This document shows, in pieces, positions 24,773-64,000 of a stretch of 64,000 nt of DNA. A model generated the notes under the pieces. That model was not told where the DNA came from, did not search any database, and worked only from the letters and a program-made list of their open reading frames with translations. The DNA lies in assembly GCF_947501665.1 (NCBI RefSeq), contig NZ_CANMWS010000011.1, forward strand, positions 1,382-65,381, read 5' to 3'. The stretch is from an uncultured Shewanella sp. GTDB taxonomy: Bacteria; Pseudomonadota; Gammaproteobacteria; Enterobacterales; Shewanellaceae. Position 1 is the first letter of the stretch. Each line of letters begins with the position of its first letter. Both the position numbers and the translations under genes were made by a program.

Positions 24773-24972
24773 TCTTCCTGATTATTCCTGCCGACACCTG
24801 TCGTTTGACACCGTCTCAATTATTATGAGGACGAATGTTAAAACAATATAAATCAATTGCATACTTTTACGTTACATTCTTTTCAACCACAGGTTATATC
24901 AGTAAACAGGCATAAATCACCTTGTGGCCAACTCATCATGAGTAATGTAATTATTGCTTCTAGGTTAAACAA

Positions 24973-25032
24973 GGGAAAGGGAAAGGGAAAGGGAAAGGGA
25001 AAGGGAAAGGGAAAGGGAAAGGGAAAGGAGAA
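24973..25032. repeat. Hexanucleotide microsatellite: (GGGAAA)9 plus one degenerate unit
   Basis: Read directly from the sequence. It is intergenic, about 200 nt upstream of the start of the 24287-24772 gene. Confidence 0.95.
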
Positions 25033-25270
25033 GTGCATCACTTGTTAAGCCTGTCCTATCTTTTTTCTTTAAAGAATGCTATTCACCATCACACCAAACC
25101 AATTCAGACATCCAAAACATCCAAAACATCCAAAATTAATTTTCAACACTATAATCCAAAGCTTCAAGATACAAGTGGTCAACTAATTCTGGCCACTTCA
25201 CAGCCAACATCGAAACAAACTAAAACGGGCTGAATATATGGGAGTGTCCATATGTGTCTTGATTGTTTCC
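25031..25270. repeat. Island repeat family 2, expanded copy (about 240 bp)
   Basis: Shares a 33-nt head (AAGTGCATCACTTGTTAAGCCTGTCCTATCTTT), GGCCACT..CAG, AACGGG and a 31-nt tail (GGGAGTGTCCATATGTGTCTTGATTGTTTCC) with 26133-26250. The extra interior contains the 9-bp tandem repeat. Confidence 0.75.
25108..25134. repeat. 9-bp tandem repeat (ACATCCAAA) x3
   Basis: Read directly from the sequence. Confidence 0.9.
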
Positions 25271-26721: not shown

Positions 26722-26760
26722 CCTAACTTTTGTATAGTGTTCCTGCTCATTTATCACACA
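26722..26760. repeat. Island repeat family 1, partial copy (motif A only)
   Basis: CCTAACTTTTGTATA followed by TGTTCCTGCTCAT, 17 nt upstream of the 26705 start codon. Confidence 0.6.
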
Positions 26761-27756: not shown

Positions 27757-27865
27757 TTTAATCTTTCTATACTGTCCATGTTCGATTACCGCAGCTCTTA
27801 CTTAACAAGCGGGCCAGTACTCTTTCTCAAAATAGACGTATGGCTAATACACTGTATTAGCAATT
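27757..27865. repeat. Island repeat family 1, full unit
   Basis: Motif A variant (CTTTCTATACTGTCCATGTTCG, 27763-27784) and motif B ending in the palindrome TAATACACTGTATTA (27845-27859). Confidence 0.7.
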
Positions 27866-28010: not shown

Positions 28011-28658
28011 TTAACCACATAACTTTAGACACCTTGGCTCTTGATTTTTTAAACGGAAATTTTCATTTGATACAAAGTTGTCTATTTCTGTTAATAACAG
28101 GTCTGTCGCCTGAGTTATAGACACAATATATTTCTCAATATTCTCCGAATCAGGAAGGATAGAATTTTCTCCATGTGCAATCCGGTTGCGAAACATAACA
28201 ATTCTGTCTATATCTCCGATTACACCTTTAAAAGACTCAAAATTAAAACCAAACACGGTACATAGCTCTTTAAGTACATTACTGTTTAAATTTGACTTTG
28301 TATCTATGTCTTTTTTAAAACTAATTTTTTTCTGAAATATCTCTATGAAACTGTCTGTAAAAACTACCTTTTGATCGAATGATTGTTTACCACTTAATGA
28401 ATTATATTTAGTTCCTAAACCAAGAACTATTAAATTTGTAGGCACTTCACTTGGGTTCAGTTTCAAGCTATTTAGGTAATCAATTAATAGTTTAAGAGAG
28501 CTAACAACATAGCCTTCCCAATGCGCATAAATCATAGGCAAACACATTCTATTCCACAAAGAACCATCCACTTTCTGAGGGTTCACTTTAAAAGTCGCTA
28601 ATTCTCCATCACGCCAGTTATTCTCTGCTTGAATTTCATCAATTAAATTATGCGTCAC
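28011..28658 (-). CDS. HEPN-domain protein (MAE_28990/MAE_18760-like predicted RNase)
   Basis: Alpha-helical, 215 aa, with an Rx4H motif in FRNRIAHGEN. The GTG start overlaps the upstream DUF262 gene by 11 nt. Confidence 0.65.
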   Translation of the reverse strand: MTHNLIDEIQAENNWRDGELATFKVNPQKVDGSLWNRMCLPMIYAHWEGYVVSSLKLLIDYLNSLKLNPSEVPTNLIVLGLGTKYNSLSGKQSFDQKVVFTDSFIEIFQKKISFKKDIDTKSNLNSNVLKELCTVFGFNFESFKGVIGDIDRIVMFRNRIAHGENSILPDSENIEKYIVSITQATDLLLTEIDNFVSNENFRLKNQEPRCLKLCG

Positions 28659-29700
28659 CTTTAAAAATCTCCAAGGCCCTATCCATACGCTTTCTAATTC
28701 TACCTGTTGAAAAAGTACTAGTACCTATACTGTTATAAACAGTATCATTTAGCAGAAGTCCAATTTTTTCGTCAATCGCATCTTCATTACCAATAACAGA
28801 TCCAAATGTTTTAGGTAAAGCGTAAGCTAATGAGTCAAAGATATGCAAAGCAAAATTACCTTTGGGTCTAAACACCGATTTTCCGTGTCTAGAAGCAATG
28901 TACTCAATAAATTGATTTAAGCTATTTTCTTCAAAATTTAAATCGAATGGTGTAGAAGCATTGGACACAGACTTCATGAATTCACTTAAAAATTGTGGAA
29001 CTGTCGTTTTAAAATCACCTTCGAGGTTTTTAAATGCAAAAAACCTTAAAGCTAACTCTTCTAGGAACATTTGCTCTAGCTTTGAATCACTAGGGCTAAT
29101 AATTTCAATAAATTCAGGCTTTTTAGCTACTTTTTTCAATATGCTATTTAAATCAACTTTGTAGCCTCTAAAAATACAATTTCTTATTTCTTGCTCAGAA
29201 AGTGGACTTGCACCTGTATTAAGACGATTAAATAATTCATATCTTATGTCTTCTTGGCTATCCCATTTTACAATTTCTACTCTACACACTGAGCGTTTAA
29301 TAGTTGTTTTAAGTTTTAATGGGAGTGTGCTGATAGTTGTATTTTCAAGCTCATTAACTAATTCACCTTGTGTGAGTATTGAATTGTTTTTCTCAGGCAA
29401 GGACTCCAACAAGCCAAAGAATGCAAATATTGATGAAATACGTTGAAGACCATCAACAACCTCCCATCTCCCATCATCATCTTCAGCTACAAATACAGGG
29501 GGAATTGGTATCCCAAGTAAAACGGATTCAATAAACCTTGTTTGTTGAAAAATAGACCACCTAAATACGCGTTGATACTCAGGTGAAATAAACAAATCAC
29601 CATCTTCAAACATATTCATCAACTCACCAAATGACATATCTAAACGATCTGTTTTTAAGGAGTTTCTTTTAAGAGCTATAGCTTCTTCTAACTTTGGCAT
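28648..29700 (-). CDS. DUF262 (ParB/GmrSD N-terminal-like) protein without a DUF1524 nuclease domain
   Basis: ISPEYQRVFRW and VVDGLQRISS motifs are characteristic of DUF262; 350 aa with an AGGGG SD. Confidence 0.8.
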   Translation of the reverse strand: MPKLEEAIALKRNSLKTDRLDMSFGELMNMFEDGDLFISPEYQRVFRWSIFQQTRFIESVLLGIPIPPVFVAEDDDGRWEVVDGLQRISSIFAFFGLLESLPEKNNSILTQGELVNELENTTISTLPLKLKTTIKRSVCRVEIVKWDSQEDIRYELFNRLNTGASPLSEQEIRNCIFRGYKVDLNSILKKVAKKPEFIEIISPSDSKLEQMFLEELALRFFAFKNLEGDFKTTVPQFLSEFMKSVSNASTPFDLNFEENSLNQFIEYIASRHGKSVFRPKGNFALHIFDSLAYALPKTFGSVIGNEDAIDEKIGLLLNDTVYNSIGTSTFSTGRIRKRMDRALEIFKGDA

Positions 29701-29777: not shown

Positions 29778-29872
29778 CCTAACTTTTGTATAATCTACAT
29801 AATCAACTACCACGTCAAAACAGTACTGTGACTAAAAATTAAAACATAGCTAATATACTGTATAGTATATAA
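29778..29872. repeat. Island repeat family 1, full unit
   Basis: CCTAACTTTTGTATA (29778-29792) and motif B ending in the palindrome TATACTGTATAGTATA (29854-29869). Confidence 0.7.
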
Positions 29873-29897: not shown

Positions 29898-31067
29898 TTA
29901 GAAATACAACCTAGCAATTTTTTCTAATTCTTGATTAAAACTTTCAACATCAGGGGACTCTAAAGTAAAAGTAAAGTCTAAAGTTACATGCTCATCATTA
30001 TGTGCAAGATTCTCTAGTGTTTCAGGAATTTCGATATGAACACGATTCACAAACTGCTCAATTTTGACGAGAGAATCATCTGAAAAACCTGATAATACTT
30101 TCAGTATTGGCTCAAAGTCTTCATTGACCTCTAGAGTAGTAAATGAAAGTTTCCAGTTGATAATTTGCTCGTAAACTTCAAGTAACCTCTGGCACACATG
30201 CTGTATTTTACGATAATCACCTTGTTTGCCAGGCTCACCAAACGACTTCAACACAGCATCTTTGACTAAAATTGTTGTGATTCTGATTAGTTTAAGCATC
30301 TCTTTATTGTGCGACGTAATCCAATCTAACACGTCTTGAGGTTCTTCAATAACAACTACATCGTTAAAGGAAATTCCGTATTCTAGGTCGAATTTTTTGT
30401 GTTCCAAACGATCTAGATATGTTTTGCATAGCAAAGCAAAAAGTAAATGTTCCCAGCCATCTGGTTTTTCAATCACTAACCTTGTTGCGTGAGGTGGGAA
30501 GAGATCCGAAGGTAGGTTTACTTCATTAACCTTCAGTTTTTTCCGAGCCTCTAAAGAGTCCATGAAAAGATAAGGTATTTGCTGAAGTAAAGCTGACTTG
30601 ATATCAGAGGCAGTATCAAACTTGTACACCCAGTTTGATTTAAAATGTGAAACATTTTCAACAAACTCGAATACTTTTTGGTTTTCTACATGGCTTGAAA
30701 AATCAGCATCTGGGTTATTCTTCCAAATGGGGAGGATATCCAAAATACCCGTGTTTACAAATACATAAATTGGTATACCTTTTCTTTTAGCTTCCAAGTA
30801 TTCAAGGTTTGTTATTGACTTCCCACCGTCAGTTTGAAAACCGTAACGGCTACCAATGATCAATACAAATATATCGGCTTTTTCTCGAACATTTCGGAGA
30901 CAATTAGAAATAGTATCCGTATCGGGAAAAACTGGAAATGAGTCATATTCAGACAATACTGGCTCAAGACCAAATGTTTGGATTAGATCCCTGATGTCAG
31001 ATCGAACTTGACCTAAGTCAAAACACGTTGAACTAACGAAAACTGTTGGTTTATAGCCAACTGGCAT
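29898..31067 (-). CDS. DUF4062-type (TIR-like / nucleoside 2-deoxyribosyltransferase-like) N-terminal domain protein with an uncharacterised C-terminal half of about 210 aa
   Basis: N-terminus TVFVSSTCFDLGQVRSDIRDLI...ADIFVLIIGSRYG...ITNLEYLEAKRKGIPIYVFV follows the DUF4062 pattern as I remember it. I recognise no family for the C-terminal half. Confidence 0.7.
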   Translation of the reverse strand: MPVGYKPTVFVSSTCFDLGQVRSDIRDLIQTFGLEPVLSEYDSFPVFPDTDTISNCLRNVREKADIFVLIIGSRYGFQTDGGKSITNLEYLEAKRKGIPIYVFVNTGILDILPIWKNNPDADFSSHVENQKVFEFVENVSHFKSNWVYKFDTASDIKSALLQQIPYLFMDSLEARKKLKVNEVNLPSDLFPPHATRLVIEKPDGWEHLLFALLCKTYLDRLEHKKFDLEYGISFNDVVVIEEPQDVLDWITSHNKEMLKLIRITTILVKDAVLKSFGEPGKQGDYRKIQHVCQRLLEVYEQIINWKLSFTTLEVNEDFEPILKVLSGFSDDSLVKIEQFVNRVHIEIPETLENLAHNDEHVTLDFTFTLESPDVESFNQELEKIARLYF

Positions 31068-31098
31068 ATTTAACCCTCATACTTTTTTATTGTGTACG

Positions 31099-31215
31099 CC
31101 CTAACCTTTGTATATTGCACATGTTCGCTCATCATGCCCTCGATTTAACCAACATGACAACACTCTTACCTACTCTCTGTTAGTCAAAACACATCACTAA
31201 TACATTGTATTTAAA
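31099..31215. repeat. Island repeat family 1, full unit
   Basis: CCTAACCTTTGTATA (31099-31113), CATGTTCGCTCAT, and motif B ending in the palindrome AATACATTGTATT (31199-31211). It lies 32 nt upstream of the 31067 start codon. Confidence 0.7.
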
Positions 31216-31423
31216 TCTATTAAGCTGAGATAGTCATAAAACTATAAGCTGCTTGCTCTCATATTGACTAGGAAAATACCACCAAAGTATTAACTTTGTA
31301 AACTAAATGTTTGTTTTTGATAATGATAGAAGTGCACACTATTGATTCAGATCACAACTTTATGGATACCTCCTATTAATACACACTCAAATCAAAGTAA
31401 CACCCTGCTTTTGATGTTCAACT

Positions 31424-31545
31424 CAGTGTAAACACGGTTGTGGCCGTCCGTGACATGGATGTCACGGCCGAAGCTATAGGGATATACTTGCGCTGTGTTA
31501 CAAGTGTGTTTGCACAAAAGCCTGCTGCAAGCGATTAGCATCAAT
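31424..31545 (+). ncRNA. Structured element copy 1 (candidate ncRNA or structured DNA element, unassigned)
   Basis: Closing helix GTGTAAACAC (31426-31435) / GTGTTTGCAC (31506-31515), inner hairpin CCGTGACAT-GG-ATGTCACGG (31448-31467), and a conserved tail GCACAAAAGCCTGCTGCAAGCGATTAGCATCA. Strand is inferred from G-U wobbles. Confidence 0.45.
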
Positions 31546-31786
31546 AAGATCAGAATTAATGGAAAACCAGTCCAACACCAAATAGCCTAAATGAATACAT
31601 CAAAAATGTGATCAACTTTCATTTGAAAGCTTACCTATGTAAGTAAGCACTCACTACAATCCATTAAGCGAAGCTTCATCTCTTCGAGCCAGCATAAAAC
31701 AATAAACAAAAATTTAGAATGTAGGTAGCTATAATTAAGCCCCTTCTTTTGATTTTGTCTTTGCTTTCATCTTTGCTTTTAAACCC

Positions 31787-31909
31787 CAGTGTAGATGCAA
31801 CTGTGACCGTTGATGGCAGGGATGCCATCGTCGAACTTACATGGAGTGTACTTGCAGTGTGTCACAGAGGTATCTGCACAAAAGCCTGCGGCAAGCAATT
31901 AGCATCATC
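31787..31909 (+). ncRNA. Structured element copy 2 (paralogue of 31424-31545)
   Basis: Closing helix GTGTAGATGC (31789-31798) / GTATCTGCAC (31870-31879) and inner hairpin GATGGCA-GGGA-TGCCATC (31812-31829), with the same conserved tail. The helices are kept by compensatory changes relative to copy 1. Confidence 0.45.
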
Positions 31910-32102
31910 AAGGGAACAAGTAAACAGGAAAGAACATTTAAGTATAAAACTTAATCAAAAGGGGGATACCTTCACTAGAAGGTTAAACTTAGGTGCTGAA
32001 ATAAAAGTCACTAGGCAATAACACTGAGTGCCGCATTAAAAGCGACACTCAACATGAGCTCAAATGCTCTAGCTCAAACTCTATTGAGCGGCTTAAAACC
32101 GA

Positions 32103-63700: not shown

Positions 63701-64000
63701 TTATATGCTGCCGCCACATGTTCCTTCACTAGACTTATGATCGCCCCCGCAAGATCCTTCTTTACTTTTGCTATGACTCCCACCACACTTACCTTCACCG
63801 CACTTCCCTTCTGCGCTTTTGGCTTTACTCTCTCCACACTTACCTTCACCGCACTTCCCTTCTGCGCTTTTGGCTTTACTCTCTCCACACTTACCTTCGC
63901 CGCACTTACCTTCTGCGCTTTTGGCTTTACTCTCTCCACACTTGCCTTCACCGCATTTACCTTCTTTGCCTTTTTTTGCATCTGGCGCAGGCATAGGTGC
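63701..64000 (-). CDS. hvfA: HvfA-type EGKCG-repeat precursor peptide (N-terminus beyond the right edge)
   Basis: The frame giving ...KEGKCGEGKCGESKAKSAEGKCGEGKCG... has eight EGKCG motifs plus EGSCG and EGTCG. The reading frame stays open to the window end, so the listed start is probably not the true one. Confidence 0.8.
   Translation of the reverse strand, partial: APMPAPDAKKGKEGKCGEGKCGESKAKSAEGKCGEGKCGESKAKSAEGKCGEGKCGESKAKSAEGKCGEGKCGGSHSKSKEGSCGGDHKSSEGTCGGSI
63784..63964. repeat. 51-bp tandem repeat, about 3.5 copies, inside hvfA
   Basis: Units at 63784-63834, 63835-63885 and 63886-63936 plus a partial fourth. Each encodes GEGKCGESKAKSAEGKC. Confidence 0.9.

Follow-up and report, generated by a model that had tools for sequence, protein, structure and literature searches.

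Is a lone gene that joins a DUF4062 domain to a helical C-terminal half of no recognized family a defense system in its own right and, if so, of what kind? The question is raised by a 64,000-nt stretch of DNA from an uncultured Shewanella sp. (NCBI RefSeq assembly GCF_947501665.1, contig NZ_CANMWS010000011.1, positions 1,382 to 65,381 of the forward strand), here termed the window, whose own numbering is used throughout. A first-pass annotation had marked there, at 29898-31067, a candidate single-gene defense or abortive-infection effector. We propose that this gene encodes a self-contained, single-protein abortive-infection switch with a putative NADase head, a reading that we consider about 70% probable. 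What was computed here is the domain identity of the protein, its conserved catalytic core, a discrete C-terminal auxiliary (AUX) domain that is shared with other proteins, the lack of a conserved partner gene, and the mobile and defense-rich contexts of the family. By analogy with published sibling systems, the head would have NADase chemistry, a phage trigger would activate it, and the outcome would be abortive.

Those siblings were described in three preprints of 2026. Osinski et al. (bioRxiv 10.64898/2026.05.01.722283; PDB 10wc/11cq/11cv) identified DUF4062 as a TIR-like NADase yielding ADP-ribose and nicotinamide and named a single-protein system Swarozyc (Swz), in which the Klebsiella protein KpSwz depletes NAD+, requires both E97 and a C-terminal AUX, and is autoinhibited as stalked dimers that a phage portal activates; in the same study TEP1 was an NAD+ glycohydrolase that formed no cyclic products. 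Ibarra-Chavez et al. (bioRxiv 10.64898/2026.06.25.731849) described Evangelion, a single-gene DUF4062 core with a diversified AUX carried on antimicrobial resistance (AMR) plasmids in lineages Eva01-Eva04, of which Eva01 depends on F11, on E87 and on its AUX and lowers NAD+ on infection. Le Mouellic et al. (bioRxiv 10.64898/2026.09.04.749371) renamed DUF4062 as NIR and reported NAD+ depletion by an Avs2 protein, by Vulcan, a single gene combining NIR with HEAT repeats that acts upon sensing a phage protein, and by Vesta, in which NIR has an alkaline phosphatase partner. Defense required E98 in Vulcan and E108 in PsAvs2, and 20.0% of NIR genes lay near known defense genes compared with the 3.9% expected (Le Mouellic et al.). 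Published NAD+ glycohydrolase activity now covers KpSwz, PsAvs2, Vulcan, Vesta and TEP1 (Osinski et al.; Le Mouellic et al.).

These studies bear out the functional idea of the first-pass annotation as to the kind of system, and with them the idea has lost its novelty. DUF4062/NIR was recognized as an immune NADase only in 2026, a recognition that connects bacterial defense with the vault particle and human TEP1. With the kind of system now known, the remaining interest of the locus lies in its unannotated AUX sensor family and in the swapping of effectors on it.

The Gene and Its Family

The open reading frame (ORF) occupies 29898..31067 on the minus strand, the same coordinates as at first pass, and runs from ATG to stop to encode a protein of 389 aa whose DUF4062(NIR)-stalk-AUX architecture is drawn from Pfam, homologues and an AlphaFold2 (AF2) model. 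The motifs previously read from it (VFVSSTCFDL, ADIFVLIIGSRYG and TNLEYLE) are all present in the translation. It is a real, conserved gene: 1,205 homologues of the protein were found, and the best 120 of these are nearly all ~385-405 aa long, cover 96-100% of the query and share 38-87% identity with it. The hosts span many phyla and include Vibrio, Aeromonas, Thalassomonas, relatives of Colwellia, Nitrospirota, Desulfomicrobium and Lachnospiraceae, among others. A family alignment of 58 sequences has a mean column identity of 52%, with invariant residues in the N-terminal domain (S12, S13, T14, C15, D17, L18, R22, C56, G72, R74, Y75, G76, S84, T86, N87 and E89) and in the C-terminal half (W205, D227 and W305). 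The distribution is nevertheless patchy, with 157 confirmed matches when 185,579 species genomes were scanned in a pattern-limited way, and a patchy spread across phyla that extends even to one archaeon is typical of horizontally moving defense genes.

The DUF4062 Head and Its Predicted Catalytic Glutamate

The N-terminal head (residues 8-150; 30618..31046, minus strand), delimited by Pfam, by alignment with KpSwz and by AF2, is an alpha/beta DUF4062 (NIR) domain, probably TIR-like, and the presumed effector. Pfam PF13271 (DUF4062) matches residues 9-93 with an E value of 1.5e-20 and 73.6 bits, the gathering cut-off being 24.7 bits, and the AF2 model has beta-alpha repeats from strand 8-13 through strand 146-150 in a beta-alpha-beta topology. 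In Foldseek searches of the PDB the head retrieved the B. cereus TIR protein (8fz9) and SARM1 with probabilities of 0.91-0.96 but at a weak E value of about 0.1. The BFVD model A0A8S5TU33 (Siphoviridae sp. ctYcY12, 358 aa, annotated 'deoxyribosyltransferase') fits the whole AF2 model with a Foldseek E value of 2.8e-11 over 395 alignment columns, and it follows from this whole-length match that a related head-plus-helical-tail protein is phage- or prophage-borne. The domain had been read at first pass as DUF4062 with a fold like those of TIR domains and nucleoside deoxyribosyltransferases, and Pfam confirms the family, while the weak TIR/SARM1 matches and the viral deoxyribosyltransferase match make the fold a probable one.

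The predicted catalytic residue, from translation and alignment, is E89 of TNL-E-YLE (codon 30801..30803, minus strand), the same Glu that had been singled out earlier. Invariant in the 58 homologues, it falls opposite Ala97 in the KpSwz construct that carries E97A (PDB 10wc) and, in an Eva01-type plasmid protein, opposite the Glu of the E-Y motif (E87 in the numbering of that paper). In the alignment of the cores, F10, the S-S-T motif, G72, Y75-G76, S84, T86, E89 and A93 are common to the core across lineages, and F10 (the equivalent of Eva01 F11) is conserved together with Y90. The family also has signatures of its own, namely SSTC where the other lineages have SSTF/Y, and (S/K)-N-C in place of the Q-W-E motif of Swz and Eva01, with the Cys invariant (N55-C56).

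The Stalk and the Auxiliary Domain

In the AF2 model of the full-length protein, which was built with the family alignment and has a predicted local distance difference test score (pLDDT) of 86.6, the head is followed by a connecting 'stalk' helix of 29 residues (153-181; 30525..30611, minus strand). It may be analogous to the helical stalk of KpSwz, judged by position rather than by superposition. The remainder of the protein is the AUX (residues 190-389; 29901..30500, minus strand), a helical-bundle domain defined by AF2 and profile search and presumed to be a sensor or regulator. Modeled alone, it reached a pLDDT of 89.5 and a predicted template modeling score of 0.86. The model is all-helical, with three short helices followed by helices of ~33, 27, 11+30 and 15 residues, and the long helices, which span 27-41 residues, form one compact bundle. 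Its conserved residues are W205, E206, D227, G277/G280/G283 (in a GxPGxxGD loop), Y299 and W305.

That the C-terminal half is helical, unassigned and devoid of an NTPase had been proposed at first pass, and this description holds. Residues ~190-389 have no match in Pfam, NCBIfam or PADLOC, and a search of the AUX profile against the PDB gave no match. The sole PHROGs row, phrog_33947 (E 0.0055), is sub-threshold, with no stretch passing alone. A fold assignment from Foldseek was also set aside, the search returning only generic talin-rod-like bundles (E>=0.1) from a PDB library that extends to 2026-04-08.

The most informative property of the AUX is the company that it keeps. An AUX-only HMMER profile, run exhaustively against 1.84 billion representatives of 50%-identity clusters, matched 1,848 clusters at E<=1e-3, 1,165 at E<=1e-10 and 161 at E<=1e-30. 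The best 150 matches are mostly DUF4062 fusions of ~390 aa or fragments of them. When the odd-sized proteins among these 150 were scanned with Pfam, the AUX was found C-terminal to eight further domains besides DUF4062: SIR2_2 (P0341), TIR_2 (P0357), PNP_UDP_1 (P0384), a dCMP/APOBEC-type deaminase (P0286), a protein kinase (P0297), Metallophos (P0306), Schlafen AlbA_2 (P0385) and EAD1 (P0342), each of them N-terminal. Against the SIR2 fusion, hhalign of the AUX profile gave a probability of 99.8% and an E value of 1.4e-28 over 192 columns, and the gene for the EAD1-AUX protein adjoins a GmrSD_N gene.

The AUX also occurs by itself. Plasmid searches by tblastn recovered Arthrobacter and Paenarthrobacter genes that match residues 197-386 only. 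The plasmid of Arthrobacter sp. ERGS1:01 (NZ_CP012477.1) encodes an AUX-alone protein of 213 aa with 27% identity over 194 residues (E 1e-20), whose gene overlaps the end of a PIN_4-domain gene by 8 nt (locus L082, 5124-6582) and has a phage-type integrase adjoining. This pair is apparently a two-gene version of the same sensor-effector logic, with the effector in trans. A PIN_4 gene with an AUX-only gene is likewise found on a plasmid of Paenarthrobacter aurescens TC1 (H32).

In conflict systems, a single non-catalytic module that is combined with a range of interchangeable death effectors is the hallmark of a sensor or regulator. The sharing of the AUX among many effectors therefore points to the protein being an immune switch, with the AUX as its input side. 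Finding the cue of a module that is reused with so many death effectors would explain the triggering of many uncharacterized single-gene systems.

A Gene without a Conserved Partner

Neighborhoods were surveyed at 79 genome loci with 10-kb flanks. The largest cluster of neighbors recurs in only 5 of the 79 loci, and no conserved operon partner was found across them; about one quarter of the immediate neighbors are close and co-directional but differ at each locus. The gene had been described as standing alone, and it does so both in this survey and in Vibrio, where its homologue is a one-ORF cassette.

Family members are also carried on plasmids. Four Enterococcus plasmids have full-length members with 39% identity, and on one of them, E. 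faecium pXD5 (NZ_KJ645709.1; locus L083, 5983-7161), the gene lies between a Fic gene and an AbrB/Doc toxin-antitoxin pair, with ant(6)-Ia, sat4 and aph(3')-IIIa at a distance of a few kb. It may correspond to one of the Enterococcus plasmids that Ibarra-Chavez et al. call 'Evangelion-positive'. The plasmids of S. aureus have a gene of Eva01 type beside an Fst toxin.

Relationship to Known DUF4062 Systems

Does the protein then belong to one of the named systems? Full-length references for two of them were recovered from plasmids by tblastn, a V. alginolyticus Swz-type protein of 331 aa and an S. aureus Eva01-type protein of 289 aa. With Swarozyc, the window protein shares the single polypeptide, the N-terminal DUF4062 domain with its catalytic Glu at the matching alignment position, a helical stalk (predicted here) after that domain, a C-terminal auxiliary domain (shown to be required in KpSwz), horizontal mobility and a defense-island setting. 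The likeness ends with the core, however. KpSwz (10wc) aligns with window residues 8-139 only (E 5.6e-7) and, when the family profile is used, with residues 7-107 only, and the V. alginolyticus protein aligns with residues 9-105 only, at 33% identity. Between the window AUX profile (the C-terminal 200 residues) and the full-length Swz-type homologue, hhalign gave a probability of 0.2%. The Swz AUX is described as helix-turn-helix/winged-helix with a portal-binding W238/Y239 hairpin, whereas that of the window protein is a long-helix bundle; the window protein is also ~55 aa longer and lacks the Q/W/E motif that Swz has. Membership in Swarozyc was rejected on the confinement of the alignment to the DUF4062 core and on the AUX comparison.

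The comparison with Evangelion runs in parallel. In the broad sense the two are alike, each being a single gene with a DUF4062 core and a diversified C-terminal region on mobile elements; F11 and E87-Y88 of Eva01 correspond to window F10 and E89-Y90, and both families occur on Enterococcus AMR plasmids. The S. aureus Eva01-type protein aligns by BLASTP with window residues 6-103 only (29% identity), and its AUX is unrelated (hhalign 0.2%). With the Q/W/E motif replaced by (S/K)-N-C as well, Eva01 membership was also rejected.

Vulcan resembles the window protein in being a single protein with an NIR effector, a conserved Glu and an all-helical C-terminus. It differs, as far as its published description allows the comparison, in that the C-terminus of Vulcan (WP_050009967.1) consists of HEAT repeats while the window protein has helices of 27-41 residues, and no HEAT/ARM Pfam domain was found in the window protein at E<=0.1. 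Vesta needs an operon partner, the alkaline phosphatase, and there is no phosphatase neighbor in the window and no conserved neighbor in the 79 loci. An assignment to the Avs/NLR-like NIR proteins fails as well, as no NTPase was found with Pfam, NCBIfam or PADLOC and the protein has only 389 aa.

Judged by these sequence and profile comparisons, the window protein is neither Swarozyc nor Eva01, Vesta or Avs. The reference sequences compared being those of Swz and Eva01 type, the lineage may equal Eva02, Eva03, Eva04 or Vulcan. The locus adds a lineage whose sensor half differs from that of every characterized one that was compared. A broader resemblance is to sensor-centered families: Avs/NLR-like proteins and SIR2- or TIR-fused abortive-infection proteins combine a conserved module with swapped effectors, which include NADases, nucleases, deaminases and kinases. 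The AUX family is like them in having one non-catalytic module with many death effectors, but the window protein has no STAND NTPase or repeats, its module being a 200-aa helical bundle outside Pfam and PADLOC.

Proposed Mechanism and Alternative Explanations

In the mechanism that we propose, the DUF4062 (NIR) domain would be a TIR-like NAD+ glycohydrolase with E89 as the catalytic residue, inactive in uninfected cells, and the AUX, joined to it by the long stalk helix, would be the sensor or regulatory module. Upon infection a cue, either a phage protein or an infection-derived ligand, would be recognized by the AUX, the protein would re-arrange or oligomerize by way of the stalk, and the NADase sites would be switched on. 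NAD+ would then be hydrolyzed to ADP-ribose and nicotinamide, the infected cell would stop growing or die, and the phage would not be propagated. Between genomes the gene travels as a one-ORF unit, as an integron cassette in Vibrio and as a plasmid gene in Enterococcus. For annotation, 'DUF4062/NIR-family NADase defense protein (predicted)' can replace 'DUF4062 domain-containing protein'.

Several points weigh against this reading of the gene as an NADase switch. A DUF4062 domain does not guarantee NADase activity, as the purified human proteins NWD1, NWD2 and NPHP3 were inactive (Osinski et al.), and the Eva02 lineage conferred no protection (Ibarra-Chavez et al.). The window protein has an invariant C15 and N55-C56 instead of the Q/W/E motif, so that its substrate or regulation could differ. 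The AlphaFold and Foldseek comparison that had been suggested at first pass was run with both the full-length and the AUX-only models and found no structural relative of the AUX in the PDB at E<=1e-3. It is from domain swapping alone that we infer a sensing role for the AUX, and a surface that follows rapidly changing phage proteins would not usually keep its motifs as strongly across phyla as the AUX does. The defense-rich setting, which speaks for the switch, is finally a qualitative observation: the scan covered 150 neighbors at the first 31 loci, counted families rather than loci and was made without a matched control, and the neighbors that it found include Gabija GajA/GajB, PARIS AriA, Septu PtuA, a type IIG restriction-modification enzyme, mads, RmrA, JukA, PDC-S01, PDC-S31 and integrases.

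The conservation of the AUX suggests a bolder reading, which we offer as tentative and somewhat doubtful. The AUX may be an undescribed and widespread sensor module, the defining part of a separate family of single-protein immune switches, and may drive at least nine effector chemistries, with DUF4062 as the commonest output, by recognizing a conserved cue. The chemistries counted here are those of DUF4062, SIR2, TIR, PNP, the deaminase, the kinase, the metallophosphoesterase, Schlafen/AlbA_2 and, in trans, PIN, in addition to the EAD1 adaptors. We speculate that the invariant pattern W-E...D...GxPGxxGD...Y...W hints at an infection cue that is itself conserved, be it a small ligand or a conserved component of phage or host, and not at a fast-evolving phage protein.

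Of the rival explanations, the one that survives best keeps both the architecture and the defense role and changes only the chemistry of the head, which would be an N-glycosidase, a CMP-hydrolase, a 2'-deoxyribosyltransferase-like enzyme or one that makes a signaling nucleotide. The missing Q/W/E motif and the family's own invariant Cys15/Cys56 would be accommodated in this way, as would the pairing of the AUX with PNP and deaminase effectors, which also act on nucleotides. We consider it unlikely, however, given that all bacterial DUF4062 proteins assayed in the preprints gave ADP-ribose and nicotinamide or lowered NAD+, that TEP1 yielded no cyclic products, and that the catalytic Glu is conserved together with its S-x-T-x-x-E-Y context.

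A weaker rival is an addiction or stabilization toxin that aids the persistence of integron arrays and plasmids, with the AUX as an intramolecular antitoxin. The contexts lend themselves to this interpretation, as homologues lie within chromosomal-integron arrays beside ParE/Phd cassettes, the Enterococcus plasmid copy sits beside Doc/AbrB and Fic genes, and the Eva01-type gene of S. aureus plasmids has Fst for a neighbor. Yet there is neither a cognate antitoxin gene nor any conserved neighbor in the 79 loci, the published siblings are non-toxic until triggered by phage and are protective at low multiplicity of infection, and interchangeable effectors attached to one shared C-terminal module are what characterizes sensor-effector immunity proteins. 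We regard an addiction toxin as improbable as an alternative to the immune switch, although the two roles are compatible and not mutually exclusive. A role outside any conflict, as a housekeeping or accessory enzyme of nucleotide salvage whose helical tail serves oligomerization, is very improbable and already disfavored, for the fold kinship with nucleoside deoxyribosyltransferases and the loci with metabolic or regulatory neighbors only are outweighed by the very patchy distribution of the family, its carriage on cassettes and plasmids, an AUX in common with SIR2, TIR, PIN, Schlafen and EAD1 proteins, and the position of the window gene in a low-G+C stretch next to another defense pair.

The Family-1 Repeat and the Origin of the Gene

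How such a gene came to stand at this position is indicated by its upstream region. The gene had been credited with its own copy of a 'family-1 upstream repeat', and this repeat is real: the core TATACAAAAGTTAGG is found at 26722, 29778 and 31100 with 0, 0 and 1 mismatch, respectively, when about 0.006 such core matches would be expected by chance in 64 kb, and each copy lies 17-78 nt 5' of a minus-strand start codon. In the copy of the DUF4062 gene, the core (TATACAAAGGTTAGG; 31100..31135, minus strand) stands directly 5' of the leader of the gene, and a second conserved block (ATACAATGTATTAGT) occupies 31196-31210 (minus strand). The copy at 29778..29813 (minus strand; block A at 29849-29863) lies in the 197-nt spacer between the DUF4062 gene and a DUF262 gene and contains a promoter-like TTGACG-17-GATTAT. 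Two further copies, also on the minus strand, are at 26722-26757 and, in degenerate form, at 27757-27792 (block A at 27843-27857). A palindromic block, ATACAGTGTATTAGC, is present 85-110 nt further upstream of the core in three copies, with GCTAATACAGTGTATTAGC in one copy, and from the offset between core and block A the whole element is estimated at about 90-125 nt. On the minus strand it stands before each of four consecutive units, namely the gene for a 148-aa membrane protein, ORF94, the DUF262-HEPN pair and the DUF4062 gene.

A 38-nt leader with a ribosome binding site (31068..31105, minus strand) starts at GTTAGG and is conserved with Vibrio integron cassettes. In blastn of the window against V. 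parahaemolyticus cassettes, similarity extends from 29898 (the stop codon) to 31105 with 82.9% identity, and it begins at GTTAG(G/A)GCG, exactly at the G of the GTTAGG core with which the family-1 repeat ends. GTTAGG is the canonical crossover core of integron cassettes, the 5' boundary of a cassette being G|TTRRRY. Beyond GTTAGG, the window has its own family-1 repeat where the cassettes have a Vibrio attC site. These boundaries indicate that the window gene is cassette-derived.

The V. parahaemolyticus protein, which is 87% identical, is encoded on 22 contigs in three different cassette neighborhoods (L084, L086 and L088), and three neighborhoods for one gene are direct evidence of the shuffling of a defense gene as a cassette. 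Two complete V. parahaemolyticus chromosomes have an array of short co-directional ORFs that includes acetyltransferases and NUDIX, with ParE/Phd reversed. In one neighborhood (CP130856.1, 1464687-1479856; L084), 21 attC-type repeats are present at cassette spacing in 15 kb, and the DUF4062 gene sits alone between two attC copies. Chromosomal-integron cassettes are rich in defense systems (Darracq et al., bioRxiv 10.1101/2024.07.02.601686), and the V. parahaemolyticus gene is like the defense cassettes in being a one-ORF cassette with flanking attC sites. The family is an example of one defense gene that circulates by three routes, on AMR plasmids, in ordinary islands of the chromosome and as cassettes of chromosomal integrons.

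The window, unlike integron defense cassettes, has neither IntI nor a Vibrio-type attC, and its repeat has no recognizable R'' box. A search in six frames found no H-x-LRH-type integrase motif, blastn found no Vibrio attC in the window, and no R'' box complementary to GTTAGG was found at the family-1 repeats. A crude attC finder, which also recovered few of the Vibrio sites, gave 15 matches in the window versus 7-19 in shuffles, none of them at the repeats, and folding z-scores of single-stranded DNA were uninformative, since genuine Vibrio attC sites were also near zero. A true integron array in the window is not supported, in view of the missing IntI motif, Vibrio attC and R''/R' complementarity and of an attC finder at background. 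The family-1 repeat marks the boundaries of cassette-like units and might represent a cluster of degenerate attC sites (CALIN), a promoter or operator common to the units, or some other insertion scar.

Other Features of the Window

The gene sits in a stretch of 32-37% G+C, compared with about 42% in the flanks. Its neighbors are those noted at first pass, with a DUF262/HEPN pair downstream and two ~130-nt structured repeats at 31.4-31.9 kb. The pair is a candidate defense system and a separate unit by Pfam and PADLOC (28011..29700, minus strand). It consists of a DUF262/GmrSD_N gene (28648-29700, minus strand; Pfam) and a RiboL-PSP/MAE_28990-type HEPN gene (28011-28658, minus strand) that overlap by 11 nt, and the DUF4062 gene lies 197 nt upstream of the former. 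The DUF262/GmrSD_N gene matches NsnA (1.4e-64) and PD-T4-2_A (5.9e-47) in PADLOC as well as phrog_2598 (3.7e-77). At the other loci of the 79-locus survey, the pair does not accompany the DUF4062 homologues.

The structured elements (31420-31565 and 31784-31929, minus strand) lie between RraB and the DUF4062 unit, in a gap of 1 kb that has no ORF. They are about 78% identical and 364 nt apart, and the best Rfam match, below threshold like all others, was Ysr224 (E 0.73). Each has a terminator-like hairpin, GCTTGC(A/C)GCAGGC, followed by TTTTGTGCA, and a second hairpin whose stems differ between the copies with the pairing kept (GUGACAU/AUGUCAC vs GAUGGCA/UGCCAUC). They are probably tandem small-RNA genes.

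Two repetitive tracts lie further away. At 24883-25041 a run of GKGKGK/FPFPFP codons, apparently a GA-rich tandem unit as judged from the translation only, gives spurious ORFs on both strands in what looks like intergenic DNA, and at the end of the window (63747-63950) there is a tandem array with a 51-nt periodicity whose copies are 84-86% identical.

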